Positions 2,888 to 64,000 of a stretch of DNA of 64,000 nt are shown here, piece after piece. Under the pieces are notes generated by a model, which searched no databases, was not told the origin of the DNA, and saw only the letters and a program-made list of their open reading frames with translations. The position numbers and the translations under genes are program-made. The DNA lies in assembly GCA_000165345.1 (NCBI GenBank), contig CM000431.1, positions 864,001-928,000 on the forward strand. Direction: 5' to 3'. Numbering within the stretch: position 1 is the first letter of the stretch; every line of letters begins with the position of its first letter.

Positions 2888-3442
2888 TTTATTTACACTA
2901 GTCTATTTTGCTCAACTAAAGTCAAATTTTCTCTCTCTTCGTCCTTCAATCCAAACACATTCAGTAATTCCTTTTTAATCTTTTGTCTCAATCTCTCATT
3001 TAACCTATCTTTTTTTTTTCGTATTATCTTCCGTTCCTATTAAAGCTTTTGAATTAAAAAAATAATATTTACTCTAATTTGGACTTAGCGCGTAATCAAT
3101 TATGCATAAAAGTGATGAGGCATGAAGAATTATTCTGAAGTAAATCCTTTCTTGCTTTTCTTATTTTTAGAAAATCCAACAAGTCACTTTACTGTTAAAA
3201 TGTGAACTTTAGTAAAACCAAGCCACTCTTCTTCTATCCAAATCTTATTTTTCTTATTCTTTATACTCACTATATTATTCACAAGATAACTTCATAGCTG
3301 TCTTTGCAATATAAAATAATTAAAGGCTTCAATCCTCCAATCAAAATATACAGGCAAAAATATTTATTTTTATCTCAAATACTTTTCTAATTATTAAGCT
3401 ATTTTTCCAATTCATTTCCTCCATGCATAGCCTTTTATTTTG

Positions 3443-3454
3443 TTTGGCGCCAAA
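3443..3454. promoter_or_regulatory. E2F-like palindrome TTTGGCGCCAAA about 165 bp upstream of the PCNA ATG
   Basis: A perfect 12-bp palindrome containing GGCGCC. It sits in a 732-bp divergent intergenic region between the DWNN gene (minus) and PCNA (plus). PCNA is a classical E2F target in eukaryotes. Confidence 0.5.
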
Positions 3455-3618
3455 TCAGTTAAACTTATTCTACAGGTAAAAAAAGGTAATAAGGCCCCAC
3501 AATTGGGGGAATAAAGAGCAATACAATAAAATATATAATAAAATTAAAACTAGAATTAATATAGTAATATTATAGTAATAAAGTTAACGAGGATATCTTG
3601 GCTTTAATTTGAAAAGAG

Positions 3619-4404
3619 ATGTTTGAAGCTAGATTACAGAATGCCATGCTATTTAAAAAGATAGCAGAAGCTCTTAAAGAGCTTTGCCATGATATTAACA
3701 TAGATTGTGATAGCGATGGGCTACATCTTCAAGCCATGGACTCTTCTCATGTTGCTTTAGTATCATTGAATATCCAACCAGATGCATTTGAACATTATAG
3801 ATGTGATAGACCAGTAGTTCTTGGTTTGGATATGCAACAACTCTCTAAATTTATGAAATTCTGCGATAAAGATACTAGTATGACTCTTAAAAAATATGAT
3901 GATAATGAAGATAATAGAATTACTATGTGTTTTGAAGATAATAGTGGAATTCTCTCGTCAAAAGAATGTACTTTAAGGCTAATGGATATTGAACAAGAAC
4001 ATATTTCAATCCCGGAAGAGGAATACGAATGTAATGTTACAATGCCTTCAAATTTATTTCAGTCAATTGTTAGAGATATGTCAGGTATTGGAGATGAAGT
4101 TAGTCTTGAAATTAGTGGAAAGAATATCAAATTTTGCGTGGATGGTGATGATGGAAAAATTGATCTTAATTTTCCTCTTAATGATAGCCCTGATATAACT
4201 AAAGCAGTACAAATTCATGCTGATGATACAATTTCCCAAAAATATGCCCTTAGATACCTCTCATACTTTACAAAAGCATCTCCTTTAAGCACTACTGTCA
4301 ATATTAGTATTTCAAAAGGAGTACCACTTAGATTACAATTTCCACTTAATGACAAATATGAACATGGAAACATGCAATTTTACCTTGCTCCTAAACTAAG
4401 ATGA
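3619..4404 (+). CDS. PCNA: proliferating cell nuclear antigen (DNA polymerase sliding clamp)
   Basis: 261 aa. MFEARLQNAMLFKKIAEALKELCHDINIDCDSDGLHLQAMDSSHVALVSLNI... aligns along its full length with eukaryotic PCNA (N- and C-terminal clamp domains, interdomain connector loop region). Confidence 0.95.
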   Translation: MFEARLQNAMLFKKIAEALKELCHDINIDCDSDGLHLQAMDSSHVALVSLNIQPDAFEHYRCDRPVVLGLDMQQLSKFMKFCDKDTSMTLKKYDDNEDNRITMCFEDNSGILSSKECTLRLMDIEQEHISIPEEEYECNVTMPSNLFQSIVRDMSGIGDEVSLEISGKNIKFCVDGDDGKIDLNFPLNDSPDITKAVQIHADDTISQKYALRYLSYFTKASPLSTTVNISISKGVPLRLQFPLNDKYEHGNMQFYLAPKLR

Positions 4405-15138: not shown

Positions 15139-15160
15139 TTTGGCGGGCACATGTGCCGCC
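15139..15160. promoter_or_regulatory. GC-rich E2F-like site (TTTGGCGGG) fused to a near-palindrome GGCGGGCACATGTGCCGCC in a divergent promoter
   Basis: An isolated GC island in an AT-rich 320-bp spacer between the start of the minus-strand gene (15043) and the start of the plus-strand RRM gene (15363). The core GCACATGTGC is a perfect palindrome flanked by GGCGG/CCGCC. Confidence 0.35.
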
Positions 15161-16546: not shown

Positions 16547-16558
16547 TTTGGCGCCAAA
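16547..16558. promoter_or_regulatory. E2F-like palindrome TTTGGCGCCAAA about 115 bp upstream of the small ORF 16672..17037
   Basis: A second perfect copy of the 12-bp palindrome seen upstream of PCNA. Confidence 0.45.
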
Positions 16559-16671: not shown

Positions 16672-17037
16672 ATGGCAGAGTTAATACTTAATAGAATAAG
16701 TGAAGCCTTAGGGTTTGGAACAAAGTGTTGTTCAAAGTGCATTTTTGAAGGAGAAAAGGAGACATTACAATGTTATGACTTGGATCCTCCTCAGATTGTC
16801 AATGAAATTTCAAAAATTAATAACAAGAACACTGTAATAGGACTTGATTGTAATCAAAAGGAGCATGAGGAAGATTTAGCTCGAGATGCAGCAAGAAAGG
16901 TCTTTGGAACAGATTTAGAAAACTCTCCAACAGTGAAAAGGGAAGAGAGAATTATTCAAGAGGAGAGCAGTGTGCCAAAATTAGATTTATTAAAAGAGGA
17001 AAATCAGAGAACAATAAAATTTGAAGATTGTAACTAG
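16672..17037 (+). CDS. small hypothetical protein, 121 aa
   Basis: ATG-initiated ORF with an E2F-like palindrome 115 bp upstream and a long AT-rich 3' spacer. No recognisable domain. Confidence 0.35.
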   Translation: MAELILNRISEALGFGTKCCSKCIFEGEKETLQCYDLDPPQIVNEISKINNKNTVIGLDCNQKEHEEDLARDAARKVFGTDLENSPTVKREERIIQEESSVPKLDLLKEENQRTIKFEDCN

Positions 17038-20665: not shown

Positions 20666-20705
20666 TGGCGCCCTCTGAAATAACTTGAGGCCACCATTTG
20701 GCGCC
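20666..20705. promoter_or_regulatory. pair of GGCGCC E2F-like sites (CCTTGGCGCCCTC and CATTTGGCGCCTAAA) in a divergent promoter
   Basis: They lie in the ~980-bp spacer between the start of the exchanger gene (20060, minus) and the start of the TRIP4-like gene (21038, plus). CCGCCATTT follows immediately. Confidence 0.45.
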
Positions 20706-21037: not shown

Positions 21038-22023
21038 ATGAGGTCTATCAGAATTTCTGATATTCAATTCCAACAAAAAAAAGGTAATAAGAAAAATAAA
21101 AAAAATAATATTTCAGGTTATGACAATAAAATAAGTGATTCAAATATTGGCGCCGATTCATCGGTATTAGTAGAATGTGGATGCTATGCGAAATTGCATG
21201 CAATTTATATTACATGCATACAATGTGGTAAGTTGCGAATAAAAATTTCTTAGGGAGAATGATTTAATGTGAATATGAGGTGGAGAGAGGTAATAAGTCA
21301 GAAATAATATCAAATTAATTAAAATTGTAATTTTTAGGAAGGATTTCATGTGAATTAGAGAAGGATATTATTGAGTTAAATAATGAATGTATATTTTGTA
21401 AATCCAAGTTAGTTAAAGATGAGAGTGGAGATTTTATTTCAGAAGGAAACAATGAGGATGAGGAAATAGCTCATTATTTTCAAGCATTAGAGAGGAGAGA
21501 TAGATTATTAGAGTATGCAAAAAATTCTACAAGTAGAACACGGGTAATTGATGAAGAAACTGACTGGTTTTCAGAATTTGAAAACCCTTGGAATACTAAA
21601 GATGAAAGACTTTTAGCATTGAAAATGTCGAAAGAATGCGCCGAAAGTGCAGCAAAAAGTAGGTTTTCAAAATATATTTTTGTGATTAGAATTTAATACA
21701 TTATTATAGGGAAAACAATGATAAATATAGATATTGAAAACAAGCAGATTACAATGGATGAAGGTTATAATACAAGGAATGCCTTGCATTATGCAAAATT
21801 ATTAGAAGAATTTGAACATAGAAGAGAAAAAAAGACTGATATAAGTACTGGAAAAACTGAAACAAATGTCGAGAATGTATTAAGTATGTTGGGACAAAGA
21901 CTAAGATTTGAAGAAGAATCCAAAATTGAGGGTAGCTTTAAATTACCTAATAAAGATACTATAATAAATGAGTTTTTGCCTTTATCAGTGAATGATCCAG
22001 TTTGGTCAGATCAGGATGATTAA
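21038..22023 (+). CDS. ASC-1/TRIP4-type zf-C2HC5 zinc-finger protein; three exons (21038..21227, 21338..21658, 21710..22023)
   Basis: Exon 1 ends ...VECGCYAKLHAIYITCIQCG at a GTAAGT donor (21228). The acceptor is TTTTTAG at 21337. The spliced junction reads CIQCG|RISCELEKDIIELNNECIFCKSKLV, which is the C2HC5 finger of TRIP4. The downstream TSRTRVIDEETDWF matches the TRIP4 TSIRRTQVIDDESDYF. The second intron runs 21659..21709 (GTAGGT...TATAG). Phases are consistent (1/1), joining to the listed ORF 21718..22023. No ASCH domain is present. Confidence 0.75.
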
Positions 22024-34888: not shown

Positions 34889-34899
34889 AAACCGGAACT
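34889..34899. promoter_or_regulatory. E2F-like site TTTTGGCGCCA about 105 bp upstream of the DRG ATG
   Basis: A GC island in the AT-rich 5' flank of the minus-strand DRG gene. Confidence 0.45.
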
Positions 34900-35357
34900 T
34901 TTGGCGCCACAAATTTTTGAAATAATATTTTTGCTAAATATAATTTTTAATAGGTAATAAAAAGAGGGGCAAGGGAAAGGGTGTAATATTTTATTTATTA
35001 AGTGGGAAAATTATAGGCAAATTTAATATTAAGATTTGACAGATTAATATAAATAAAATATATTTTAGGATATATTTTGAAATATTAAGGTGTTAACTAA
35101 ACGTTGAAATGTTGAAATCTAATGCAAAATAGGAGAAAAGAACGACTATTATTTGTATAATGATTGAAATCATAAGAATCCCAGAAATTGAGTTCTATTA
35201 GATTTTTAAATAAGTTAAGATTTTTTTTTCTTAATAATACAAGATAGAAAAATTGAATATATATTGAATTGTATTTTTAACATTTTCCACCCTGTAGTAG
35301 TAATTATAACTTACGCTTAATTTAGAATGAAGATTTAATGCTTTAGCTTGGCATAAT

Positions 35358-35695
35358 TCTAAAAATAAATTTTATTTATTATGAAGAATGCCATATTAAT
35401 TTTAAGTAAAATTCCATAAATCTTTGACTTACCATAAGTTAGCTCTTTAATTATTCTTTCAGATTTCTTCTTAACATATCCATTTTGACTGTTTAAATTA
35501 AAATCAGAATTAATTTTAATTTCGTCCATTTGTAGCCATGAAACTGGTGATAATAATGAAATAATACTTTCTGGATGATTATATTCGCTTAAATCTTCGT
35601 TCATTATCTTGAAAAATAATTAATTATTCATTTATTCTCTTTATTTTTAAAATTCATTAATTCAATTCTACTTACTTTTTCCACGTTATTTTCTT
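35358..35695 (-). CDS. candidate small spliced gene (exons 35695..35666, 35607..35433, 35358..~35205), unknown function
   Basis: On the minus strand, ATGACAAGCGAAGAAAATAACGTGGAAAAA is followed by a GTAAGT donor, and 58 nt later by a ...TTTCAAG acceptor that joins in frame to the listed 81-aa ORF. That ORF contains a second GTAAGT (TATG|GTAAGT) followed 74 nt later by TTTTTAG, and the ORF-track stop is the AG of that acceptor. The phases are consistent. An 18-bp palindrome ATTTGCATGCATGCAAAT lies ~216 bp upstream. Confidence 0.25.
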
Positions 35696-36047
35696 CGCTT
35701 GTCATTGAAATATAATTTTTCAGAGTATTTATGAATATTTCAGTATTGTCCGACTATTTAAGAAAAAAATAGTACAATTTTGTACTTGAATTTCTTTATT
35801 TTTTTAATATTATTATTAATATTTAATTTTTAATTTACTTCTAAATTATTAACTACTTTGATTCTTCTTTAAATTATTGCCAGATGATTATTTCAATTAC
35901 GTGTAAAGAAATTTGCATGCATGCAAATATAATATATATATCATTACTTGCATGTAAAAAAGGAAAATAAATATTTCATTTGCAATAATCCTATTAAAAT
36001 TTAATGAAATTATTGATTTTTTATCTAAGCAAAATACTAAATAAAAA

Positions 36048-37925
36048 TTAAATTTTCTCATAAATGTACAAGTAAGACCAAAAAACTAAGCCAATGGGTG
36101 TTTCAAGAAAAAATGAATCAAAAACTCTGCGAATAAGTTTATAATTATGTTTATGGAGCCATTCTTGCAGATTTTCATTAAAGTATGAATTAATTACAAA
36201 GAATTTTGGTAATTCCCCAGAAAGTTTTCTATTAAATCTGTAATTCAAACAATTGTCAAAATTTGAAGTATTTAACTTAGTAATATTTGATGAAATATAT
36301 GGACTGGGGTAAGATGTATTCAACAAGGGATTAATAACAAAAATCTCCTCCAATAACTGTGTAGTATTTGGATGTGTCCAAAGTATTTCATTCATATTCT
36401 TATGTTTGATTGATTGATTAATATTAGGAGAACAATCAAAGAATCCAAATTTCACGTCTTGGTTTAAGAAAGAGTAGGCTGGATACATATGGCATTGAGA
36501 AACAAAGAAAATGGATCCATTCTTCTGCAAATTCAAATTGGACAAATATCTAATCGCAGATTCACCACCTCTTTGAAATATTGTTGTAAAGAAAAAAGCT
36601 GGAATAATTTGAGCTAGTAATGTTACTAGAAGGTACTTATTATTGAGATATATTCGAAAAATGCTAATACTACTAAATAATAACCCCATACAGTTATTAT
36701 TATCCATTTTGAAGAGCTTATGTATTTCTAAAATGAGTTTATATATTCCAAGGCTCGTGGTAATTAACAATATGGGAAAATAAGGGATAATAAAACGATG
36801 TTCTTTATGTGATGTAGTAGAAAGCAAGATCATAGTAATTAAAGTAGAAATTTGTGATATTTTAAATATTTGATTTTTTAAATTAAATGATTCGATGATT
36901 CCAAGAATCATAAATGGTAGATAAGAAAGTAAAGTAACAATTGGCATTTCAGTAAAGTAATAAAGTCTGGAATTTGAACCATATATTTGTCCTGGATCTC
37001 CCATCAAATTAAATTTAACAAAGTTAATCATTGGAATTGTAAATTTTTTGTAGAACAAATAATCCAAATAAAACATTACTGGTATTGTGATGAAAACAAC
37101 AACTATGCAAATTTTTAACAATTTCATGATTGTAAAAATTGAATATTTACTACCTTTATTAATAATATCTTTAATTTGAAAAATAATCAAAGTTAAGTAT
37201 AATATTAGCCAAAATTGAACAGATGAATGCCTAACTAAAACACTTAATGAAGAAAGAAATATTCCAATTATAAGAGATTGATTATCTGAGTAACTACCAT
37301 TAATCAATTCTTCTGATTTAATGATAAAATATATACTCCAGATATTAATACAATTTTCAACAGTTTGGGCATAAGTTCTACATAAAGTATAGAAATTATA
37401 CCAACTAAATAATGAAATAAATAATGCCACAAAATCTAATTTATATTTATTACATATTTTCTGGTAAAATGAAATTTTGAAGAAGATAGAATCTTTCAAA
37501 TTACTTTTGGATTTATTATCACTATCTTCAATTTTAGTTTCCATTCGAGCATAATAATTTTTGTGAAATATTGAATAAGCAACTTTACTTGTACCAATAT
37601 CTGTTAATATAGCAAATATAGACTGATAAAGCCTTGGAATAATGAAATAATAATTTGTATGATATAAACATTGGTAATTATTCTTACAGAAAAATTTTAC
37701 AATCTTTTTAAAGAAATTTATGATAATATAACATATAGTAAAAATTAGTGGATGAATAATACTTCTTAAAGATACACATGGTTCCCATTCCCATGTAAGG
37801 TACCCAAACTTATTCACAATTTTGTGTGCAACCTCTAAAGATTGCCAATACTCATCTGGATTATAAGTTGTGCGGATAAATAATGAATTTAGGATTCTAA
37901 AAACAATAATAATTATATAGACCAT
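36048..37925 (-). CDS. GT22-family dolichyl-phosphate-mannose-dependent mannosyltransferase (PIG-B/GPI10 or ALG9/12-type), polytopic membrane protein, 625 aa
   Basis: The N-terminal motif ...RTTYNPDEYWQSLEVAHKIVNKFGYLTWEWEPCVSLRSIIHPL is the conserved GT22 signature (HPDE..Q.LEVAH...G.LTWEW...RS). It is followed by more than 8 hydrophobic helices. Confidence 0.75.
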   Translation of the reverse strand: MVYIIIIVFRILNSLFIRTTYNPDEYWQSLEVAHKIVNKFGYLTWEWEPCVSLRSIIHPLIFTICYIIINFFKKIVKFFCKNNYQCLYHTNYYFIIPRLYQSIFAILTDIGTSKVAYSIFHKNYYARMETKIEDSDNKSKSNLKDSIFFKISFYQKICNKYKLDFVALFISLFSWYNFYTLCRTYAQTVENCINIWSIYFIIKSEELINGSYSDNQSLIIGIFLSSLSVLVRHSSVQFWLILYLTLIIFQIKDIINKGSKYSIFTIMKLLKICIVVVFITIPVMFYLDYLFYKKFTIPMINFVKFNLMGDPGQIYGSNSRLYYFTEMPIVTLLSYLPFMILGIIESFNLKNQIFKISQISTLITMILLSTTSHKEHRFIIPYFPILLITTSLGIYKLILEIHKLFKMDNNNCMGLLFSSISIFRIYLNNKYLLVTLLAQIIPAFFFTTIFQRGGESAIRYLSNLNLQKNGSIFFVSQCHMYPAYSFLNQDVKFGFFDCSPNINQSIKHKNMNEILWTHPNTTQLLEEIFVINPLLNTSYPSPYISSNITKLNTSNFDNCLNYRFNRKLSGELPKFFVINSYFNENLQEWLHKHNYKLIRRVFDSFFLETPIGLVFWSYLYIYEKI

Positions 37926-42038: not shown

Positions 42039-42790
42039 TGGAAGTTGGTTGAAATTGAAATAAGTCCCAATTGTTAAAAGTTATTTTTTATTTATTAATA
42101 TTTTTTTATTAGACTTTTATGTTATAAGAATTTTTCCATTTTTTTATTTAATTTTATTATTGCATTAATTATTTTCCTTATTTCTAATTTATACAAAATA
42201 TTTTGTAATTTGCACTAACATGTAATTAAATGACGTGTAGTTCCCGCCGTTTTATTCAAGTCAATAAAAATAAATTAGACAAAAATAATAATGTAAATGA
42301 AAAGAGTAAAATAATTAAATATAAATTATAATTTTTTTTTCAAAAAGAAGGAAACGAATAATTTATTAGATGAAGAAGTTTAGAAATCAGGTTATTTTTG
42401 GTTAAATTTAATATTAATTAATTTTAAAGAAAGAAAGTTAAATTTGAAAAGTATTTATTTATTAAAGCAAAAATTTGAATTAGTTTAATTAATGGAATTA
42501 AGGAAAAATATTCGTGATATATATATTTAAGTTAATGGGTTTTTTAATAAGAAGCAAGATCCTATTGTATTTGACCAATTAATTGAATTGAAAAAAAAAG
42601 TGGTTATGAATAGAAAGTGGGGAAGAAATAGTTATTAATTGGAATTTAAGAGTTTGTGAAATATATAAATATTAAAAGAAAGACGTAATTTTTAAAGAAA
42701 TTAACATTTTTAAGCTGTGAAACATATTTTTATTTTCATTTCTTCTTCACTACTAATTCTAAACCATTAACTTTTTTTTTCAACGAAAAG

Positions 42791-45700: not shown

Positions 45701-47434
45701 GTTTTTGCTATTTTAGTAAACATTATATTAATTTCAATGGCAAATATAATTATTCCAATAGTTTATAGTATTAAAAATACACTATTTCCAATATTAACAG
45801 TAAATGCAGTTATTAACTTTCTTATATTTTACTTAATTAATGGTACTTTAATTTACATATTCACTAGAAAGATGAACAGTTTTAACAAATCAATTTTGAA
45901 TGACTATTTATTACTTTTACAGAGAATTAATCAAATGAGAAAAGAAAGGAGAAAGTTGGAGTATGAAGAAGTGGAAGAGGAGGAAGAAGAAGAGGAGGAA
46001 GAAGAAGAGGAAAAAGAAAAAGAAGAGGGGGAAGAAGTCTATAACTACGATATTAATCACAAGGGAATAAAAGACAGTAGTGAGATAGAGGAATTGGAAA
46101 AGAGAGAAATAGAAGAAGATATAATGGAATATATTTATAGTGAACTATTGTATTGTTATATTCAAACTATGCAAGATTTGAATACTGAAAGTAATAAAAA
46201 ATATAAAAAGTCAATGTGGTTATTTTTTGGAATTGGAATCGTTCAAATGACTTTATCACTATTTTTGGATACATTTGTAATTAATAAATTTAACTTTAAT
46301 GGATCATTTGTGAATATTTTTAATGTTATAAATTTGCTAATATCAGCAACACTAAATTTAATATATATAAGTAAAAAGATTGGAAGATGGGATCTTTTGG
46401 ATATATTTAATAAGAATTTACTTATAATTATGGATGGAGTAATTCAAGAAAATCAATTAAAGTTTTTAACTTATTCTTCTAGTATTGTTGAACATATTTT
46501 ATATTGGAATTATATATTTAATCATAGTAATGATAATAATGTCAATTGGAGAAACTTTGTTTCAAATATATCATTATTAGAAATGGACCAACATAAATTA
46601 CAAAATATTAAAAATAATAAGAATAAAAATATTAATGTATTATGCAGAATACATTTAGATATTAATAAAATACTAAAAACTCCCAACTCTAATAATAATA
46701 TTAATGAATTATGGCCATTCTTTTATCTACATTATAATTATATTCAAAAAAAATTAATAATATCATCTCATAATTTAATTTTATACAAACAAGAGAATAA
46801 AGTTCATCAAAAAAATAATCATTTAATGTCAATTCCTGTTAATTTAATTTCCATTGAATCTATTCAATCTTCAGTTTTTCCATGGGCATTTATATATAAT
46901 AATAGTGGAAAAATGATAGAGAAAGATAATCATTTAGTTACTAATATTAATATGGAAAATAATAATTTAAATTTCAAAAATCAAATTCAGCAATATATTG
47001 AAATATTAGAGAATTTCATTTTCTCATCAGAAAATCAAAGTCTTACAATCAATTCATTACTAGAATTTACTGACACTTTTAAAAAGAAATATCAAACAAA
47101 TAATTTTCAAATGTCTAAAGAATTTCAAAATAAATTAAGTCAAATTTTTTATAATTATAATTTTATTTCATTATACGATAATAATAATTCAGGCGCCAAA
47201 ACACATTATAAGGAGGAGTCAGACAACTGGCGCCTGGATGAAAGTTTGGAAATAATTAAGTTAAAGGATGATCCATTATATATTTTAAATTGCACAATAC
47301 CAATAGAATATTTACTAAATATGGATATAAATATCAGCTTTGAAGATTTAGTTGCAAAAGATGAAGTTATGAAGTTACAAATTGCCTGTTTTTCTTTTGC
47401 TGACCTATTGAGTATATATACAGCTATTAGTTAG
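42791..47434 (+). CDS. large hypothetical protein (1547 aa) with Asn/Lys-rich low complexity, (DK)n and poly-Glu tracts, and a central cluster of predicted TM helices
   Basis: Uninterrupted ORF with an ATG at 42791. TM segments LILVFAILVNIILISMANIIIPIVYSI, LFPILTVNAVINFLIFYLINGTLIYIF, LFFGIGIVQMTLSLFLDTFVI and INLLISATLNLIYI are flanked by acidic EEEE tracts. No recognisable domain. Confidence 0.55.
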   Translation: MNINKELIRELKLEDIPINLILDATCKSPPGIKNKLNSRRNDLNGFDENSSMDEPGLRIMTEGGISRESYYYKDQSIIENISKIGNLKESKKIYESSVNNESNSEIYSKIKKSTTNYESKKNRNIPRLHLPIKTLNNDIKEEQLSRQDKSSDNNDFINDDSCHNSKYDVFNNNRKVNLSENELEIGYSPLHSNNLSMYLNNYYSNRDDTKFDKEVNHLQEKLPNTLNTFEISDNSSKFKDHQLKSIFENYNYSKSDPSETNFELNHINRTLSETSSSLQTKHYQEYKYDSIKKFDYNEEKSNITNSILNREKDKDKDKDKDKDKDKESDKNLSNRLDRLIPVSKLLKHEDSEIKLKEITNREKYSNIFKNDDEFTSIFQKCWDDAGNELRNRNENHLNEGNTEESDKDLYLNHVPFQSDLIMVNSKRKIKTTIPIEAMNNSNNKVLAYNSSYYSDSINPMGLLKYVKKQNQKDELYVNMNNKINQQTDRGTYVLLAEDMSTRASTFNNLASFGVNSNIALETHSSGGNHNDSNLNYNIIEKAKNNKEDFDDLTELDYKEDIISVDKVSHSIVNGDYYRQEIKSYEGKNRLINETELHRINNSDLESNLDLESGSNTNNNRIITYNKDDDIKSIVENFLKIEKNNESKYKNKKMVRLYKDDPKVSIQKLRDNLKNIENKRLGNISNNLLSEENIHKSIYEEFNEVRNKLPKNKEFIIDMVDENKYDYGFSFEVFKKDDNMKITDMGMKIQEFYAPITSSLDSKKREKVEGLDKSHFINIPNIEIEEISVSDQNEVNGSLNVHELKMVENIQEVFKDEKVKGKGKGRMKEEEEEEEEEEEEEGEEEEEKEEEEEEEEEGKEKEGDDEEDDGEKGETEEDIDFVEGKEGYFNTSTRYYNSLGLTEDFLLVFMNFSLVRILSSNSYGNTFKEMKELKLLERAKEDRKNINRNWKQTIMNYEKLGMFAEKRNLILVFAILVNIILISMANIIIPIVYSIKNTLFPILTVNAVINFLIFYLINGTLIYIFTRKMNSFNKSILNDYLLLLQRINQMRKERRKLEYEEVEEEEEEEEEEEEEKEKEEGEEVYNYDINHKGIKDSSEIEELEKREIEEDIMEYIYSELLYCYIQTMQDLNTESNKKYKKSMWLFFGIGIVQMTLSLFLDTFVINKFNFNGSFVNIFNVINLLISATLNLIYISKKIGRWDLLDIFNKNLLIIMDGVIQENQLKFLTYSSSIVEHILYWNYIFNHSNDNNVNWRNFVSNISLLEMDQHKLQNIKNNKNKNINVLCRIHLDINKILKTPNSNNNINELWPFFYLHYNYIQKKLIISSHNLILYKQENKVHQKNNHLMSIPVNLISIESIQSSVFPWAFIYNNSGKMIEKDNHLVTNINMENNNLNFKNQIQQYIEILENFIFSSENQSLTINSLLEFTDTFKKKYQTNNFQMSKEFQNKLSQIFYNYNFISLYDNNNSGAKTHYKEESDNWRLDESLEIIKLKDDPLYILNCTIPIEYLLNMDINISFEDLVAKDEVMKLQIACFSFADLLSIYTAIS
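43726..43779. repeat. (GACAAA)n / (GATAAA)n hexanucleotide coding microsatellite encoding (DK)n
   Basis: gacaaagacaaagacaaagacaaagacaaagataaagataaag. It also generates a spurious antisense LSLSLS ORF (43675..43920). Confidence 0.9.
45269..45376. repeat. ~108-bp homopurine (GAG/GAA)n tract encoding poly-Glu
   Basis: A run of only A/G bases (gaggaggaggagg...gaagaagaagg). A second homopurine run of ~64 bp lies at ~45980..46043. Confidence 0.85.
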
Positions 47435-48081: not shown

Positions 48082-49554
48082 ATGAGCAGAAAACATTCTA
48101 TTTTAAATAATACCAAAATTATTATGAACTTATTTTCATTCTTGGAAATCTCGGATTTAGTTAAAATGAGGAATTTGAATTCCTGTTGTAAACTAATTAG
48201 TGACCACTATATTAAAATGTCTATTCATAGAGATAAGTCAAAATATAAAAATATTGAGATTGAGAATAATGATGAAAGTAATAGTAGTAATAATAATAAT
48301 ATGAACAATATTGCCAATTATTTTTGTCCAAGTAAAATTAATAATAATAATAACATTTCGCAATTAAGAATGAAATTTCTTCAACTTTGGAATATTTATT
48401 CAAACAAAAATTTAATAGAAAAAGTCAATTACTATGATTATAACTTGTGTTTTATAATAAAGATATTAATATATTTAATTTCAAATGTAAAAGATGGACT
48501 TGATTTAAGTTTGATTTTTGCAACAAATAATTTTTATTTACAACAAATTTATGGATACGGATTAGATGATTCAAATTCTTTATCTTCTAATATTAATAAT
48601 CACTCAAAAAATAGCCATATTTTTAATATAGAGCGTGATTTAGATATAGATATTGAACAAGATGAATATATAGATTTTCAAAGTAATTCTTCAACTATTG
48701 GTTTGAATCATAATCACGAAAGTATTCCAATATATATTCAAGAATTTTTTAGAAATGAGGGAATCTGGAAGGTAATTGCAAAACTTTCTGGTTATAATCT
48801 CTCAAACGCCGAATTATCAAGTGAATCCAATGGAATCTTTGAATATTATCTTTGGCCAGAAAAAATGGAAGATCCTAAATACTCTATCATTGATCAAAAT
48901 ATTATTGAAAATATATTTTCAACAATATTAAAAATGAAAACGTTGGATCCAAATATACGTAAACAAGTTACTATTCTTATGAATAAAAATTTGAAAGCTG
49001 AATTAACATTTTATAGTAATACTGGCAATATAATAAATAGATCCAATATTAATATTGTTAAAGATCAATTCAACCCAAGTTATTATAGTAGTATCGACAA
49101 TAATAATAATAATAATCATCATCATCATCATCATCATCATAACTGTAATACTGATTTTCAAAGAGATAATTCCCATAATATTAATAGTAATTACCCATCA
49201 GAAATGATTTATTCTTTATTACAGCCTTGTACATTTATTAATTCTCAATTATCTTCCATTATTCTACTTTGGATTATCAACTTTTTGAAACTACAAAAAC
49301 AACTTCCATGTTTAAAACAAATCCCAAAAAATGATAAATTTTTGTTTAATGCCAATAACAATAACAATAATAAATATCGTCTTCAGCATAGAAATCATCA
49401 ATTTCTTCATAATCATAACTATAATTACAATAAAATTCCATTGAATTCAAAATTTTCTTCCACATCTAGATTCTCTAAATTAAATAATATTAATAATCAA
49501 AATCAAAGGTCAAATCCAAAGTCAAAACCAAAGCCAAAGTCAAAACCAAAATAA
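48082..49554 (+). CDS. hypothetical Asn-rich protein with possible F-box-like N-terminus, a His8 run and a C-terminal (KPKS) repeat, 490 aa
   Basis: The N-terminus LFSFLEISDLVKMRNLNSCCKLISDHY loosely resembles an F-box. It contains NNNNNHHHHHHHH, encoded by (AAT)5(CAT)8 at 49100..49140. The tail is SNPKSKPKPKSKPK. Confidence 0.45.
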   Translation: MSRKHSILNNTKIIMNLFSFLEISDLVKMRNLNSCCKLISDHYIKMSIHRDKSKYKNIEIENNDESNSSNNNNMNNIANYFCPSKINNNNNISQLRMKFLQLWNIYSNKNLIEKVNYYDYNLCFIIKILIYLISNVKDGLDLSLIFATNNFYLQQIYGYGLDDSNSLSSNINNHSKNSHIFNIERDLDIDIEQDEYIDFQSNSSTIGLNHNHESIPIYIQEFFRNEGIWKVIAKLSGYNLSNAELSSESNGIFEYYLWPEKMEDPKYSIIDQNIIENIFSTILKMKTLDPNIRKQVTILMNKNLKAELTFYSNTGNIINRSNINIVKDQFNPSYYSSIDNNNNNNHHHHHHHHNCNTDFQRDNSHNINSNYPSEMIYSLLQPCTFINSQLSSIILLWIINFLKLQKQLPCLKQIPKNDKFLFNANNNNNNKYRLQHRNHQFLHNHNYNYNKIPLNSKFSSTSRFSKLNNINNQNQRSNPKSKPKPKSKPK

Positions 49555-49770
49555 AAACCAATTTTCAAATAGTAATCTTGGAGATATACCAGAAACCTTT
49601 GGAAAATTGTGTAATATCATTAATTCACAAGAAAATCTTTTGACTGAACTTAAACAAATATTAAATACCATCAAATAAATTAAAAGAATAAATTTAAGAA
49701 ATTAAAAATGGAATCGTTTGGAATATTTGTTGAATTTTATATAATAAAAGTGGGTATCTATTTACCAACT

Positions 49771-53842: not shown

Positions 53843-54735
53843 TTTACCTTACTAGGTTCTTATTTTCAAATTTCTATTTTCTCCCCACAATTTATGCTTT
53901 CCAACTATTTCTTCGAGTATTTTCCAGAGGTATTTTATCAATATAAGTATTTTAAAAATTTCCTATATCTGTACTTTTTTTACTCTCCCTTTTTCCAACA
54001 AAACTTTCAAATCAAAAAATGAAAGAAAAAGAAAATAAAACCAAATATTTGTTTTTAGCAATTTGACAATGTGAATTATTATTGCGCCTTATAAATTTAG
54101 CTTCAATTATTAGTAATATTTGATTTGAATCAATATTTTTATACTATTCATTATTATTTCCATCAAAGTTTTGTTCATAAAAATAACTAATTAAATGCCC
54201 TGATTAAATATAATCCTCACTTTTTTACTTCATTTCATTTCAATAATTCATTTTTTTATGTTTATTAATTGGAATATATTTATCTCATTCTTTTCTACTT
54301 AAATAAATCAACTGCGACAAACTTACATATTTAGATAATATTTTTTTATTAATATTTATAACTTTCCCGTCTTTCAATTCAATTTAAATAATAACTTCAA
54401 CTTATACTATTGTTAATCGTTCCATCTTAATTGCATGCACTTGAAAAAATAATTGTCCACATTAAATTATTAAAAAAAAAACACGTAATTGCACAAACTC
54501 CGGTATAGAAGTATTAAAAAAAAATGCAGAAGCATAAATTTCTGCATGCATTATTTTTAAAAATAAAATTATTTATCTAAGTTTATAAATTCCCAGGATA
54601 TGAAAATATATTAATTAAAATAATAAGATATAAATATAACAAATATATTAAAATTTGACTTTCCGTGATCAAGTGTAAGAAAACATGACGAAACAAAGGT
54701 TAAAAAAAGTGAAAAAAATATAAGAAACACGAAAA

Positions 54736-54996
54736 TCATGCTGAATTCTGAGATTTAGAGTATTCCTCAGAAGTATAACACTTCATAGTGACAGAATGGA
54801 TTTCATTATAAACCTCTCCAATGGCTTCGTTAACCAATCTTTGTCTTTCCAAGATTCTTTTACCGACAAAACAGTCTGATACAACAATAACTTTAAACAT
54901 ATACCCACAATTACAATTGCTGACATCTACAACGTCAAGAAGTGTAGGATTCAAAGATTTGGAAATTCTTTCATTGATAGTTTCTTGGATACTCAT
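54736..54996 (-). CDS. BolA-like protein, 86 aa
   Basis: ...LNPTLLDVVDVSNCNCGYMFKVIVVSDCFVGKRILERQRLVNEAI...IHSVTMKCYTSEEY fits the BolA fold pattern (L..V.D.S.....F...VVS..F.G...L.RH..V...L....IHA..i...T..E). Confidence 0.65.
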   Translation of the reverse strand: MSIQETINERISKSLNPTLLDVVDVSNCNCGYMFKVIVVSDCFVGKRILERQRLVNEAIGEVYNEIHSVTMKCYTSEEYSKSQNSA

Positions 54997-55483
54997 TTGC
55001 GATAATTTGAATCAATTCTAAATTAATCAATAAGTTTAAAAATCAAAAATGGTAGTATTGGCGAAAATTTAATCGAATTTTTTGATTTAAAAAAATGGAT
55101 AAAATTTTTCCAACCGAATAATTAAAATTTCTTTTTATTATTAAAATATCAAATTAAAAAAAAATTTATTTAAAAAAAAAATCCCTGCAGAAATAATTAT
55201 TGTCAAGACAAATCATGCGCCTGAATTTTGGTTTTTAATAAAAATTTAAAAAAAAAATATTAATAAATTAAAGAAAAAAGTTATGAAACAAAGCTTATAG
55301 ATGTACTAACTCACATATATATATTAAGCATTTATATATATATTTATATATATCTGTAAATTAATATTATATATAAGCATATATTTTACCTATTTCAGTT
55401 AAGTTTTATAAAAAGAAAAAAAAAGAAATCCATTCTGGAGAGTGAAATTAATAATTACAAACAAAACACATCATTTTGGAAAA

Positions 55484-56698: not shown

Positions 56699-58669
56699 AT
56701 GAATTCTTTTGGTGCAATAAATGGGCAAGGAGAAGATGATGATGACTTAGAACTTCAGCGTGCATTATCTGAATCCCTTCGCGAATTTAATAATACCAAT
56801 AATATATTAAAAAATAATGGCATTCAAACTCTGGATGAAAATAAAAAGCAGAGTAAGGATAACAACGATATTGAATTTATCAATAACTCTGTAACATTTG
56901 ATGATTTGATAAATTATTCAGAGTCTATGCAGAATGAATTGGTGAATATATTGAATCTTAATAATAATAATTGTAATAATTGTAAGAAAAAGAATGATAT
57001 TGATTCTTTAACTCAGATAATAACAGGAAAGAAAGTTATTATAGATAATAAATTACACGAACATTTTAATGAAACTTATGACCCCTATAAAGATAAAGAA
57101 TTAAAACCTTTACCCATTGACAATGTAAATGAAATTATTGAAATAATTTTTGGAATTAATGGAAATTTATTGGCTCAGGATGAAGACATTAAAAGATGGA
57201 TCTATCATTCAATTGAGTTTACATGTAATTCAATTCCAAAAATAGAAGATGATAATAAAACTGATTTTTTTAAGGAAAATCGATCAATTTTCACTTTTAA
57301 AGAAAACTTTAAAAGTATGAACTACTGTTTAATTCAACAAGGAGGTGGTCCTTGTGGAGTTTTAGCTTCCCTGAATGGATTTATTATAAGTCAATTAATA
57401 TTTAATCCTTTAAGGCTTAAAATGATTAAGGAAAAATATCAGGAAGATCTGGTTGAGTATTTGAATTCTATAAGTGAGGAGGATTGTTGGGAAGCTTTAA
57501 TTCAATCAATATGTATGATATTTTTCCAATCGTCTCCTGAAAGCAAGTATCGTGTTATTCAGTATAAACCATATGAAAAAATGGAAACACTTCAACAGAA
57601 TAGACATTTTGACTTGATAAGTAATTGTTTAATTGGAAATGGAAACAATTTGTATTATTATGTTGAATATGATGATATTATGGAAGTTTATAAATTCTAC
57701 TGGAGACGTTTAAAATCTGGAATCTTCTCTAATATTGGCTCATTATTTTCAATATTAGTTTCGATTGTTGGTTCAAGAACTCCAAATCAGATTCGCTTGG
57801 ATATGGATGACTTTACGAATCCTTTAGTAGGAATGTTTGGTCATTGTAGTCAAGAGCTTGTGAATCTATTTATCACAGGAAGTGCAGTATCTAATGTGTT
57901 TGATGGTGTAAAGATTTTGAACGATAATGGTGGAGGAACAGTAACAGGAGCAGGTGATACTAATGAATCGCTATCTTTAAAAGGTATTTATAAGAAGTCT
58001 ATACTAGGTTATTTAACAGAACATGAAGCATTACAGTATTGTAAAGTTGGATTAAATTATAAATATCCTCTTTATCCTATTTGGATTATTGTTAATAAAA
58101 ATCACTATAAATGCTCATTCAGTTTTAATTTCAATGAATGTATTCTAACCATTTCTCAAGAGTTTATTCAAGTTATGCAAAAAGCTTTTGAAAAGTTTGA
58201 TACTGAAAATTCTGGATTTATCTTTGATAATCAATTAGAAAAGTTTCTAAATGAAATTAATTTAAAAGACTGTATGTTTGAACTTAAAAAATTTAGTGAA
58301 AATGGAATAATTCTGTGGAATGATTTAAAGAAGTGTATATTAAATTTGGTGGGAATCGAAAATGAAGAAGATAATCAACTTAGAGGAAGTAGAACAGGAG
58401 ATAATTCTTTAATAAGCCAATATAAATTATGGACTTCTGTATATATTTTTGATGGTCAAAATCATATTGGAAAGAAATTAATCATTTCTACAATATTTCC
58501 ACTTGAAAACTATTCCAAAACTAAAAAACTTTACGATAAATTTTCTTCTAATCATAAACAAAATGACAATGATAAAAGAAAATCTATTGAAGAATTGGAT
58601 TTAATTTCAATTTTACAAACAAGATGGGGAGGAGAGACTGTAATTGAAACTAAAATCTTAAACCTATAA
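56699..58669 (+). CDS. MINDY/FAM188 (DUF4205)-type putative deubiquitinase with N-terminal UIM and EF-hand-like segment, 656 aa
   Basis: The N-terminal EDDDDLELQRALSESLRE is a ubiquitin-interacting motif. ...CLIQQGGGPCGVLASLNGFII... matches the catalytic-Cys region of FAM188/MINDY-3/4. ...FEKFDTENSGFIFDNQLEKFL... resembles an EF-hand. Confidence 0.55.
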   Translation: MNSFGAINGQGEDDDDLELQRALSESLREFNNTNNILKNNGIQTLDENKKQSKDNNDIEFINNSVTFDDLINYSESMQNELVNILNLNNNNCNNCKKKNDIDSLTQIITGKKVIIDNKLHEHFNETYDPYKDKELKPLPIDNVNEIIEIIFGINGNLLAQDEDIKRWIYHSIEFTCNSIPKIEDDNKTDFFKENRSIFTFKENFKSMNYCLIQQGGGPCGVLASLNGFIISQLIFNPLRLKMIKEKYQEDLVEYLNSISEEDCWEALIQSICMIFFQSSPESKYRVIQYKPYEKMETLQQNRHFDLISNCLIGNGNNLYYYVEYDDIMEVYKFYWRRLKSGIFSNIGSLFSILVSIVGSRTPNQIRLDMDDFTNPLVGMFGHCSQELVNLFITGSAVSNVFDGVKILNDNGGGTVTGAGDTNESLSLKGIYKKSILGYLTEHEALQYCKVGLNYKYPLYPIWIIVNKNHYKCSFSFNFNECILTISQEFIQVMQKAFEKFDTENSGFIFDNQLEKFLNEINLKDCMFELKKFSENGIILWNDLKKCILNLVGIENEEDNQLRGSRTGDNSLISQYKLWTSVYIFDGQNHIGKKLIISTIFPLENYSKTKKLYDKFSSNHKQNDNDKRKSIEELDLISILQTRWGGETVIETKILNL

Positions 58670-58670
58670 A

Positions 58671-60260
58671 TTAAAAATTTTTTAGTTCGTTTGGTATTGG
58701 ATTATTTGAAGTTAAAAGGATTTTTTTGAGCTCAGGAAATAATCCCGAATCTTCAGGTGTTATAAATGAAATAGCAATACCATTTTTCCCAGCTCTTCCT
58801 GTTCTTCCAATACGGTGAGTATAAGTATCAATCGATTTTGGGAAATCATAATTTATAACAAGGTTAATATTATTAATATCAATACCACGTCCAGCAACAT
58901 CGGTAGATACAAGAATGTCAAATACTCCGCTTTTAAACAAATTAAGACTATTTTCTCTAACTTCCTGCATTTTCCCACCATGTAGAGAAGTTGCTTTAAA
59001 ACCATGAGATACAATTTCTCTACATACAATATCTACCATCTTTTTTTGGTTAAGAAAAACAATAATTGGTGGTACTGCCAATTCTTTATTATTTAAAGTA
59101 TTAATTAACGTAGATTTCTTTTTATTTTCACTAATAAAATTGAGTATTTGTTGAATTGATTTTTTTCCTGCTCCAATATCTCCAATAGTAACATTAATTG
59201 GCGAATTAAGATACCTTTTCGCAATGTTTTCAAGCTCTTTCTGCATAGTAGCACTAAACATATGAGTAGTTCTTTGAATCTCTGGCGGTATCTGATCAAG
59301 AATAAAGTTGAGAGAGTCTTGAAATCCTAAATCAATCATTCTATCAGCTTCATCCAAAATAACATATGAACATTGTACTAATACTGTTAATGTTTTTTCA
59401 AGACAATCCTGCATTCTACCTGGAGTTGCAATAATAATCTCCACTCCTTTTCTAAGTGAAAATGCTTGTTGATCAATATTTCTTCCTCCAACAATAGATA
59501 AAGTACGTATTCTTTTTAATTCATGAGTTTTATTTAATAATTTTTGAGCTTCATCTTCAATTTGAAGTGCTAATTCTCTGGCTGGAGCAAGAATAAGTCC
59601 ATATGGTCCTTCTTGACTTGTTTTATAATCAAGTATTGGTTTATTCCCTACATAACTAATAAGTGGAATTAGAAAAGCTATAGTTTTACCACTACCAGTT
59701 TCTGCTATTCCTATCATATCCCTAAGTTTTAATCCAATAGGAATACATTGCATTTGAATTGGAGTTGGCTTTTCATAACCAATATTTCTAATTAACTCTG
59801 TTTGTATTTCTAAAACATGACAATCTTTCCAATTACGTATTGGATTTGGAACATCTTTGCCACGTACATTAATTGAGTAATCTTCTCTAAATATTTTCCA
59901 ATCTCTCTCAGTCATATCAAAATATCCCAAATCTGATTTCTCATCCAAAAATTCATCATTCTTTCCATTACTATCTTCTTTTCTTATTCCTTTCTTTTTC
60001 CTCTCGCTTAACATCTTTTCTATATTTAATCGATTCATATATAATTCATTTGACCCCAATGAAAAAGTATCCTCATTATTGCTCCATTCAAACTGTAGCA
60101 TGCCTCTATGTCTTTTTTTGCTCTTTCCATCTTCAACATTACTACTTATTAAGTCATAATTAACAACATTATCCTTCTCATCCGAATTAGCTTTATTAGC
60201 TAATATTGATTGATCGTTTTCATACCTATCTAACCTCTCTAGTCCCGGAATCTTCAACAT
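58671..60260 (-). CDS. DEAD-box ATP-dependent RNA helicase (Prp28/DDX23-like core), 529 aa
   Basis: Q motif PTPIQMQCIP, motif I AETGSGKTIAFLIP, Ia PARELA, II DEAD (ILDEADRMIDLGF), III SAT, VI HRIGRTGRAG. The N-terminal ~130 aa are charged. The stop codon lies 1 nt from the stop of the convergent upstream gene. Confidence 0.88.
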   Translation of the reverse strand: MLKIPGLERLDRYENDQSILANKANSDEKDNVVNYDLISSNVEDGKSKKRHRGMLQFEWSNNEDTFSLGSNELYMNRLNIEKMLSERKKKGIRKEDSNGKNDEFLDEKSDLGYFDMTERDWKIFREDYSINVRGKDVPNPIRNWKDCHVLEIQTELIRNIGYEKPTPIQMQCIPIGLKLRDMIGIAETGSGKTIAFLIPLISYVGNKPILDYKTSQEGPYGLILAPARELALQIEDEAQKLLNKTHELKRIRTLSIVGGRNIDQQAFSLRKGVEIIIATPGRMQDCLEKTLTVLVQCSYVILDEADRMIDLGFQDSLNFILDQIPPEIQRTTHMFSATMQKELENIAKRYLNSPINVTIGDIGAGKKSIQQILNFISENKKKSTLINTLNNKELAVPPIIVFLNQKKMVDIVCREIVSHGFKATSLHGGKMQEVRENSLNLFKSGVFDILVSTDVAGRGIDINNINLVINYDFPKSIDTYTHRIGRTGRAGKNGIAISFITPEDSGLFPELKKILLTSNNPIPNELKNF

Positions 60261-60353: not shown

Positions 60354-60365
60354 AGCGCCAAAAAC
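60354..60365. promoter_or_regulatory. E2F half-site-like AGCGCCAAAAA about 100 bp upstream of the helicase ATG
   Basis: A GC island in the AT-rich 5' flank. It is an imperfect match to the GGCGCCAAA copies elsewhere. Confidence 0.3.
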
Positions 60366-60934
60366 ATGCACGACCATTATTGATAAATATTAAAAGGTTA
60401 CCAATTTAAAGTAAATATGTAATGAAAAAAAAAAATGTTTTTTTTTGGCGGGAGATTTTGTTAAATATAAAATGCATGGAATAATGCAATTAATGTTAGA
60501 GGTAGAAAATGTTAAAATATTTAAAGATTACGAGAAAGTGAGAGTATGTTGGAGAAAAAAAATAAGGAAAAAAAAATAAAGAAAAGAAGTATAGGAAGAA
60601 GCAAAAGAAAAGAATAATATTTATTTGAGCTTAAGAATGAATAGATCCCGAATATTATTAGGTTTTATTAATTGAAATATAAAAATACGTAGATTTAAAA
60701 CTTTAAAAAATAATTATTATTAGTTTTATTTTTGTAAGAACTATCTTAAGTTAATTACGTTAAATTCAAACAGATTTTCTATTATTCTAACGAGGGTGAA
60801 ATGAAAAATAAAAGTTTAAGTAATTTGCATTCCGCCAATCATTGCTGGATTAAATATTAATAGATTACACAAATTTTTTTTAATTAGTTATAAGTAAATA
60901 ATATTGCTGAATTAAAATTAGCAACAAAATTTTA

Positions 60935-63900: not shown

Positions 63901-64000
63901 AAGAGGAAGAAAAAGCTTTTATGGATAATTATATTAATAGTAGACCAATTTCAATTCAAGAAGGATTGAATGATTTGGGAGATTTAGAAGCTATTGAAAG
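60935..64000 (+). CDS. multi-exon secreted cysteine-rich protein, 3'-partial (exons 60935..61078, 61168..61569, 61638..>64000)
   Basis: The ATG at 60935 encodes the signal peptide MGISHTFINYIITFCLIILLEFIFSIDIL. A GTAAGT donor at 61079 and a TTTTAG acceptor ending at 61167 join exon 1 in frame to the listed ORF 61222..61590. That ORF's apparent start is TTG, and its stop lies inside a second intron (donor AAA|GTAAGT at 61570, acceptor TTTTAG ending 61637). Exon 3 then reads open for ~787 codons to the window end. It contains repeated CP.G....C-like Cys motifs (YECPKGLHVTPRRWC, KCPRDF...VCLARR, SCPGILL), Asn/Asp low complexity (NDNDNDN) and a Glu/Lys-rich tail. Confidence 0.65.

Follow-up and report, generated by a model that had tools for sequence, protein, structure and literature searches.

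Most genes in a 64-kb stretch of the Cryptosporidium parvum genome (contig CM000431.1, positions 864,001 to 928,000; 64,000 nt, called here the window) are preceded by short GC-rich sites built around the hexamer GGCGCC or its variant GGCGGG. We consider these sites to be functional promoter elements (with a probability of about 0.95), namely elements of the E2F type (T)TTGGCGCC(AAA), accompanied by the variant TTTGGCGGG and by GGCGC half-sites. The sites occur non-randomly, have E2F-like flanks, are restricted to 5′ regions and are conserved across the genus. They are probably read by E2F/DP winged-helix heterodimers. Both the motif and its E2F interpretation are already known; they were described in the literature of 2003–2013 and were reinforced in 2025 by an assay for transposase-accessible chromatin with sequencing (ATAC-seq).

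The window has a G+C content of 27% and consists of densely packed, long, intron-free open reading frames (ORFs). GGCGCC was found 12 times (at 3446, 16550, 20667, 20700, 21149, 28350, 28363, 34903, 40359, 47192, 47229 and 52406), with 0.18 occurrences expected; the 5-mer GGCGC was found 32 times versus 2.6 expected from shuffled sequences, and the E2F consensus TTTSSCGC had 15 matches versus 0.74 expected. None of these three counts was reached in any of 100 dinucleotide-preserving shuffles of the window. The hexamer GGCGGG was present in four copies (0.6 expected). The claim of an earlier note on this DNA, that GC-rich GGCGCC islands stand out in AT-rich spacers, is thus borne out, and so is its statement that the perfect palindrome TTTGGCGCCAAA occurs at 3443..3454 and 16547..16558. 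The window has no further exact copy of the 12-mer, and 10 sites (1.34 expected) are within two mismatches of it. Among all hexamers made of G and C only, GGCGCC was the commonest by a wide margin, followed by CCCGCC/GGCGGG. In an unbiased ranking of 6-mers over the 15.5 kb of non-coding DNA, the top three words (GCGCCA, GGCGCC and CGCCAA) were all fragments of the E2F-type motif; after AT-rich low-complexity words came CATGCA, CCGCCA, GCATGC, CCCCAC and CCCGCC. Under a first-order Markov model 0.06 copies of GGCGCC were expected in the non-coding DNA, and nine were observed.

The nucleotide T was preferred in the flanks, being present at positions −3, −2 and −1 in 13, 15 and 14 of 18 half-site views; such T-rich flanks fit E2F sites. 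Taken as a class, the sites have the consensus TTTSSCGC, the symmetric SGCGCS core and the T/A-rich flanks of E2F/DP cis-elements, as well as the [C/G]GCGC[G/C] or GGCGGG upstream words of the motif family published for C. parvum; the E2F-type identity that the earlier note had proposed is therefore supported. Unlike in canonical E2F/DP sites, the fully palindromic form TTTGGCGCCAAA predominates, with 13 of the 15 TTTSSCGC matches reading TTTGGCGC.

Location of the sites was assessed on an ORF map refined with the C. parvum annotation and with orthologues, in which 24% of the window (15.5 kb) is non-coding. Nine of 12 GGCGCC were in non-coding DNA (binomial p = 3e-4 given the non-coding share), as were all four GGCGGG; taken together, 13 of 16 hexamers were non-coding (p = 3e-6), and each of these 13 was situated in a spacer holding at least one gene 5′ end, the upstream location that is expected of E2F-type sites. 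The distance to the nearest downstream ATG was 118–431 bp for non-coding GGCGCC and 95–548 bp for the variant and half-sites. Four of the GGCGCC-bearing spacers are divergent promoters (DWNN/PCNA, NaCaEx/C2HC5, MRS2/SAC3 and Kelch/M18); the three others precede cgd3_3510, DRG and the 768-aa gene in head-to-tail arrangement, and in these the site comes soon after the stop codon of the upstream gene.

Of 18 complete upstream regions, seven carried GGCGCC and 11 carried GGCGCC or GGCGGG; the number rose to 13 upon adding conserved GGCGC half-sites and to 14 upon adding a pair of sites inside the coding end of the neighbouring gene (before gene 48082). The proportion is roughly 60–75%; therefore ‘most’ is the right word for it, and ‘nearly every’ 5′ intergenic region, as had been proposed, is an overstatement. 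The original list of sites was largely correct, with some coordinates in need of repair: the site given at 15139 is the variant TTTGGCGGG (GGCGGG at 15142); the one given at 34889 was 14 bp off its true position, 34903; those at 20668, 40357 and 52404 are real but 1–2 bp off the core; the copy at 60354 is indeed a half-site, GCGCCAAAA at 60355. The list was also incomplete, as it missed three GGCGCC in coding sequence (21149, 47192 and 47229) and three upstream sites of the GGCGGG type (38151, 42243 and 60447).

The same elements were found at orthologous loci of six other species: C. bovis (L001, L004), C. ubiquitum (L002, L005, L012), C. muris (L003, L011), C. felis (L006, L013), C. xiaoi (L007) and C. 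canis (L008). In nine of these loci (all except L012 and L013; 205 kb in total, 18.6% non-coding) we counted 24 non-coding versus 5 coding GGCGCC (p = 1e-13) and 16 non-coding versus 3 coding GGCGGG (p = 1e-9). E2F-like sites recurred in orthologous promoters, often at similar distances from the start codon, within flanking DNA that is largely unalignable. Such phylogenetic footprints, each extending to 2–6 further species, were seen for the promoters of PCNA, cgd3_3510, DRG, M18/Kelch, MRS2/SAC3, DEAD, BolA/CK2-beta, CDK5RAP3 and ORF711/RRM.

PCNA promoters are classical E2F targets in animals and plants, and an E2F-like site was present in the PCNA promoter of all seven species. The GGCGCC closest to the C. 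parvum position was located at −173 in C. parvum, −175 in C. ubiquitum, −166 in C. canis, −89 in C. felis, −236 in C. xiaoi and −248 in C. bovis, the latter with an extra half-site at −175; C. muris has GGCGGGAA at −84. (The C. muris locus was reached by a search with PCNA; a search for Sec7 homologues gave seven Cryptosporidium proteins, none of them from C. muris.) In the alignment of C. parvum, C. ubiquitum and C. canis the site forms an island of identity between a CATGC, itself aligned in these three species, and the G-box CCCCACAC. The core CCCCACAC is kept near PCNA in six species; in C. muris CCCCAC abuts GGCGGGAA, so that the CCCCAC core is kept in all seven. The promoter thus has a composite order: CATGC(A), the E2F site, then the CCCCACAC G-box ∼45 bp further on.

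The companion motifs were enriched in the non-coding DNA of the window as well: CATGCA was found 21 times versus 3 expected, GCATGC 7 versus 0.5, and CCCCAC 7 versus 0.5. Often CATGCA is located within 30 bp of an E2F site (3422, 16576, the 40370 region and the 60365 region). The window alone reproduces the published E2F, AP2_1 and G-box families.

Among the promoters with head-to-tail arrangement, that of cgd3_3510 has (T)TTGGCGCCAA(A) in three species (C. parvum, −122; C. canis, −111; C. felis, −109); C. xiaoi has GGCGCC, at −220, and C. muris has both GGCGC (−152) and GGCGGG (−128). For DRG, sites were found at −118 in C. parvum, −127 in C. ubiquitum, −272 in C. bovis (GGCGC) and −114 in C. 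muris (GGCGC); as MAFFT placed the GGCGC cores of the distant species in different columns, conservation here means presence and distance. Upstream of the 768-aa gene, C. ubiquitum has TTTTGGCGCC at −297, 16 bp past the stop codon of the same CDK5RAP3-like gene; the orthologous region of C. felis had no site and was counted as a loss. At the promoter of the 1547-aa gene, C. ubiquitum has GGCGGGAA, at −502, and C. bovis has GGCGGGAG, at −239.

Among the divergent promoters, MRS2/SAC3 of C. ubiquitum has the pair CCCGCC and GGCGCC with a 13-bp spacing identical to that of C. parvum, and C. bovis has a half-site, GCGCCAAC. The Kelch/M18 promoter has GGCGCC in C. ubiquitum and GGCGC with CCCGCC in C. 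bovis. For ORF711/RRM, GGCGGG or GGCGCC was found in C. canis, C. felis, C. xiaoi and C. muris; for NaCaEx/C2HC5, GGCGGGAA was found in C. felis and C. xiaoi, with several sites in C. canis. At the last two promoters GGCGCC and GGCGGG are swapped between species, as one would expect if a single class of factors recognizes both. The half-site of the CDK5RAP3-like promoter is matched by half-sites at comparable distances, at −225 in C. ubiquitum and at both −201 and −101 in C. felis; the core at BolA/CK2-beta is TCAGGCGCAT in C. ubiquitum, the same as in C. parvum, and GGGCGCAC in C. felis; the promoter between the DEAD helicase and a multi-exon gene has CCCGCCAAAA and GGCGC/GGCGGG in C. ubiquitum, and GGCGGG and GGCGCGCGCGG in C. 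felis. For the DEAD helicase, BolA/CK2-beta, the CDK5RAP3-like gene and the 768-aa gene, therefore, counterparts exist for all four in C. ubiquitum and for the first three in C. felis.

In C. muris (L003, DS989728.1) the upstream sites are mostly of the half-site form (A/T)GGCGCTA, and the full palindrome is less used. Synteny at this locus is broken upstream of DRG, with thioredoxin, Rad51, CID and histone genes in place of ALG9/Kelch/M18, and the ALG9/Kelch/M18 run is placed after MRS2 instead.

The motif has a long record in C. parvum. According to Oberstaller 2013, Bankier et al. 2003 were the first to notice it, on chromosome 6; in Oberstaller 2013 itself the E2F motif 5′-TGGCGCCA-3′, with core [C/G]GCGC[G/C], and GGCGGG make up the most over-represented family of upstream motifs (PMC3734150). 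The form [A/T][C/G]GCGC[G/C][A/T] is given for this family as well. Cryptosporidium is the only apicomplexan genus that keeps E2F/DP (PMC3734150, PMC12246861); two E2F/DP pairs are present, absent from Plasmodium, and the parasite is possibly ‘unusually reliant’ on E2F (PMC3734150). The E2F genes are cgd1_1560 and cgd6_1430 and the DP genes cgd7_3650 and cgd8_1850 (PMC12246861, 10.1101/2025.01.17.633476). The motif was found upstream of 161 of 200 co-expression clusters (Oberstaller 2014, PMC4117751), and motif-bearing clusters peak at every sampled time point (PMC3734150, PMC4117751). In sporozoites E2F is the dominant motif in ATAC-seq peaks, more than half of which are bidirectional promoters, and the motif is also present between genes of polycistronic transcripts (10.1101/2025.01.17.633476). 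Our sites share with this family (Bankier 2003; Mullapudi 2007; Oberstaller 2013; Xiao 2025) the organism, the core and its two variants, the upstream location, the wide range of target genes and the accompanying TGCATGCA (AP2_1) and G-box motifs; there is no essential difference. What is added is footprints at the level of single loci, covering seven species, and three sites that lie within coding sequence, neither of which was found described in the motif papers cited. The concentration of sites at 5′ ends, their conservation in the genus and the matching literature together support the broad E2F-like promoter code suggested in the earlier note.

Several observations weigh against taking the sites as E2F-type promoter elements. 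Four of the 18 complete upstream regions (those of Sec7, ORF1115, the 116-aa gene and MINDY) have no site; the MRS2/SAC3 promoter at the orthologous locus of C. muris has none either and was counted as a loss. The downstream genes are mostly not cell-cycle genes (DRG GTPase, M18 aminopeptidase, Kelch-BTB, MRS2 transporter), unlike those of classical E2F regulons. According to a 2025 review, very few of the putative regulatory components of Cryptosporidium have been experimentally confirmed (PMC12246861). No apicomplexan Rb orthologue is known (PMC3734150), so regulation by E2F would have to be non-canonical.

A purely compositional feature, a chance product with no function, would be the simplest alternative, and a single 64-kb window is indeed small. 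The shuffles and the Markov expectations rule out such an origin for the GGCGCC islands; besides, in orthologous promoters the sites are conserved in six further species, with a non-coding bias of p about 1e-13, and we give this alternative practically no weight. An RNA or DNA structural element was set aside as well: a loopless 12-bp palindrome is unable to form a stable hairpin, and both strands read equally. Somewhat better placed, yet very improbable, is the notion that the motif marks a classical G1/S regulon with replication genes such as PCNA as its only true targets and all other copies incidental. The perfect site at PCNA is conserved in seven species, and SAC3/MCM3AP (cgd3_3570) belongs to the DNA-replication gene set of Mullapudi et al. 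2007; cgd3_3570 is also listed in the supplements of Oberstaller 2013 (PMC3734150). However, of the genes in the window only PCNA and, arguably, SAC3/MCM3AP fit such a regulon, the other targets being a GTPase, a peptidase, transporters, a helicase, BolA, CK2-beta and genes of no known function. Moreover, sites at genes unrelated to replication (DRG, M18/Kelch, BolA/CK2-beta, the DEAD helicase and cgd3_3510) are conserved equally well, and the breadth of the expression clusters cited above, both in number and in peak time, does not agree with a G1/S marker.

The identity of the reader deserves more caution. The sites could be read by another protein (ApiAP2, zinc-finger or another GC-box-binding protein), or they could be a nucleosome-excluding or bidirectional core-promoter signal; we find this unlikely, though less so than the two previous alternatives. 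The functional mixture of the target genes and the presence of the motif under ATAC-seq peaks in general would agree with it. On the other hand, the core and its T-rich flank closely fit TTTSSCGC, and orthologous promoters use either GGCGCC or GGCGGG, as would be expected of one E2F-type recognizer; also, E2F/DP is kept in Cryptosporidium alone among apicomplexan genera. As for ApiAP2 proteins, we rejected them on their published specificities: on protein-binding microarrays the C. parvum AP2 domains tested bind TGCAT, CACACA and the G-box instead of the E2F motif (PMC4117751). ApiAP2 motifs (TGCATGCA, G-box GxGGGG, CACACA) are likewise short, conserved and situated in compact AT-rich promoters, and they adjoin E2F sites in the window (CATGCA at 3422 and 16576, CCCCACA...TGGGG at 3495–3508); they differ from the E2F-type motif in sequence and in the family of the reader protein.

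With E2F/DP as the likely reader, one could picture the promoters as follows. In the E2F4–DP2 structure (the complex with DNA, reportedly that of Zheng et al. 1999), one winged-helix domain binds each half-site, and E2F/DP heterodimers would bind the palindromic core of the Cryptosporidium sites in the same way. The site is located in a short AT-rich spacer, ∼100–450 bp upstream of the start codon; since the core is symmetric, one site could serve both genes of a divergent pair, and in head-to-tail pairs it comes just beyond the stop codon of the upstream gene. When occupied by E2F/DP, such sites would mark promoters as open chromatin, depleted of nucleosomes, at most genes and would drive a large, mostly housekeeping set of genes, beyond replication genes such as PCNA. 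Both the binding factor and the activation upon binding are inferred. With canonical animal and plant E2F/DP sites the elements share the TTTSSCGC consensus, the T-rich flank, a palindromic CGCG-type core and a position upstream of PCNA; unlike those, the Cryptosporidium motif marks most promoters instead of a G1/S regulon, in a phylum with no known pocket protein of the Rb family. The breadth of targets and the absence of Rb point to a general promoter-defining role rather than to a G1/S switch.

The three coding GGCGCC are of two kinds. The site at 21149 is in the C2HC5 zinc-finger gene (two exons, start at 21038), where GGC GCC encodes Gly-Ala in a variable N-terminal linker of the protein, despite the AT-biased codon usage. 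Its counterparts in C. felis (L006, 1432) and C. canis (L008, 1230) are located 108 and 111 nt past the ATG and are followed by AAA, so that the three species, C. parvum included, differ by no more than one codon in the offset from the ATG; the N-terminal segment of the C. xiaoi orthologue has no GGC GCC. The pair at 47192 and 47229 is located 205–242 bp before the stop codon of the 1547-aa gene, and the spacer that precedes the next gene (48082) is itself devoid of sites. In C. ubiquitum the counterpart, GGGCGCGAAAA, is in coding sequence as well, 200 bp before the same stop; in C. felis it is a GGCGCC situated 541 bp before the next gene, in DNA annotated as intergenic. It is conceivable, at somewhat less than even odds, that some E2F-type sites embedded in coding sequence are kept by selection on the DNA itself.

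Among the genes of the window, five of the six translated ORFs had exact C. parvum protein matches, including the DRG GTPase, the M18 aspartyl aminopeptidase and a part of the C2HC5 zinc-finger protein. The window thus belongs to C. parvum chromosome 3 and covers the neighbourhood of cgd3_3470 to about cgd3_37xx. The small ORF 16672..17037 is a real, conserved gene, as had been suspected: the annotations of C. parvum, C. hominis and C. tyzzeri all include it, and C. canis, C. felis, C. xiaoi and C. muris have syntenic counterparts of 121–135 aa, with the conserved blocks CCSKC, EKETLQC-DLDPPQIVN and IKFED. In comparison with C. canis it has 30, 23 and 72 differences at codon positions 1, 2 and 3, a substitution bias toward the third position. 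The earlier argument from the upstream motif is sound, though synteny and codon pattern are the stronger ones.

Table. Positions in the window of E2F-type sites, companion motifs at PCNA and two genes
Feature	Position	Strand	Context
TTTGGCGCCAAA	3443..3454		Divergent DWNN/PCNA promoter; GGCGCC core 173 bp upstream of PCNA ATG 3619; 559 bp from DWNN ATG 2887
TTTGGCGGG, E2F variant (GGCGGG at 15142)	15139..15147	+	Divergent ORF711/RRM promoter; 99 and 221 bp from the two ATGs
TTTGGCGCCAAA, second perfect copy	16547..16558		122 bp upstream of small-gene ATG 16672; 138 bp past RRM stop
GGCGCC	20667..20672		Divergent NaCaEx/C2HC5 promoter; 371 bp upstream of C2HC5 ATG 21038
TTTGGCGCC	20697..20705		Second site in NaCaEx/C2HC5 promoter; 33 bp from site 20667
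GGCGCC	21149..21154		C2HC5 exon 1, in-frame GGC GCC (Gly-Ala), 111 nt past ATG
GGCGCCAAA	28350..28358		First of tandem pair, centre of divergent MRS2/SAC3 promoter; 418 and 431 bp from the two starts
GGCGCCAAA	28363..28371		Second of MRS2/SAC3 tandem pair; 13 bp from first
TTTGGCGCC	34900..34908		118 bp upstream of DRG GTPase ATG 34785 (minus strand); downstream of 116-aa gene 35093–35705
GGCGGGAAA	38151..38159	+	226 bp upstream of ALG9-like mannosyltransferase ATG 37925 (minus strand)
TTGGCGCCAAA	40357..40367		Divergent Kelch-BTB/M18 aminopeptidase promoter; 451 and 282 bp from the two ATGs
CCCGCC (GGCGGG on minus)	42243..42248	-	548 bp upstream of 1547-aa gene
GGCGCCAAA	47192..47200		3′ coding end of 1547-aa gene; 242 bp before stop; 890 bp upstream of ATG 48082
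GGCGCC	47229..47234		Same coding end of 1547-aa gene; 37 bp from site 47192
TTGGCGCCAAA	52404..52414		329 bp upstream of 768-aa gene ATG 52077 (minus strand); 21 bp past CDK5RAP3-like stop
GCGCC half-site	54084..54088	-	242 bp upstream of CDK5RAP3-like gene
GCGCC half-site (ATGCGCCTGA)	55217..55221	-	Divergent BolA/CK2-beta promoter
GCGCCAAA half-site	60355..60362	-	95 bp upstream of DEAD-box helicase ATG 60260 (minus strand)
TTTGGCGGG	60444..60452	+	Divergent DEAD helicase/multi-exon gene promoter; 187 bp from helicase ATG, ∼490 bp from ATG near 60935
CATGCA (published AP2_1-type)	3422..3427		16 bp upstream of PCNA E2F site
CCCCA-CAAT-TGGGG, inverted G-box-like pair	3495..3508		∼45 bp downstream of PCNA E2F site
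PCNA, 261 aa	3619..4404	+	Pfam PCNA_N and PCNA_C; exact match to C. parvum Iowa II XP_626898
Small protein-coding gene, 121 aa, hypothetical protein	16672..17037	+	Exact match to EAK88990; CPATCC_001374, CPHLJ_3g3510; cgd3_3510

Some gene models of the window could be refined. Between DRG and the ALG9-like gene there is a 116-aa gene with intron(s), at 35093..35705 on the minus strand; in C. meleagridis and C. ubiquitum its exons are annotated as fused to DRG, giving products of 443 and 457 aa, respectively. Between the 116-aa gene and DRG there is an E2F-type site, at 34903, which argues that DRG has a promoter of its own and that the fusions are mis-annotated. A gene of the BolA family, 86 aa (54739..54996, minus strand), was below the 100-aa limit of the ORF list; it shares a 487-bp divergent promoter with CK2-beta, which starts from the ATG at 55484 and not from the GTG at 55442. 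The multi-exon gene at 60935..64000 (plus strand) runs off the window and has at least three short introns, which is unusual in the intron-poor C. parvum; its exons are at ∼60935–61090, 61153–61578, 61638–62408 and 62517–63713 onward, and the ORF 61222..61590 is an exon of it, not a separate gene. Convergent pairs are very tight: the 3′ ends of the PCNA and Sec7 ORFs share 9 bp (4396..4404), and the MINDY and DEAD-helicase ORFs are one base apart (58669..58671).

In C. ubiquitum (L005, 8702..10799, with zero N bases) the ALG9-like gene (Glyco_transf_22; window 36048..37925) is represented between Kelch and DRG by a remnant of residues 8–73 only, and appears to have been largely deleted or pseudogenized; a CCCGCC site persists ∼200 bp upstream of the remnant. 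A 21.4-kb stretch of the window had a single difference from the C. parvum chromosome 3 record CP044420.1, an extra G at 49508 in gene 48082..49677. The inserted base shifts the frame, so that the ORF stops at 49554 (490 aa) versus the annotated 531 aa, and the exact 490-aa product was not present in the protein collection searched; the extra G probably reflects either an indel from sequencing or assembly or a difference between strains.

With the motif already known, the finding carries little weight as a discovery; still, a true regulatory signal had been picked from raw sequence. For annotation, its value is that the small gene cgd3_3510 is confirmed as real. The locus-level footprints in seven species mark specific promoters as candidate experimental targets; those of PCNA and cgd3_3510, having clean, single, perfect sites, are good candidates for binding and mutagenesis work. 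The conserved sites embedded in coding sequence bear on the packing of promoters in a 9-Mb genome: if they are functional, then promoters of downstream genes, or internal promoters, would reach into coding sequence that is under a dual, coding and regulatory, constraint.

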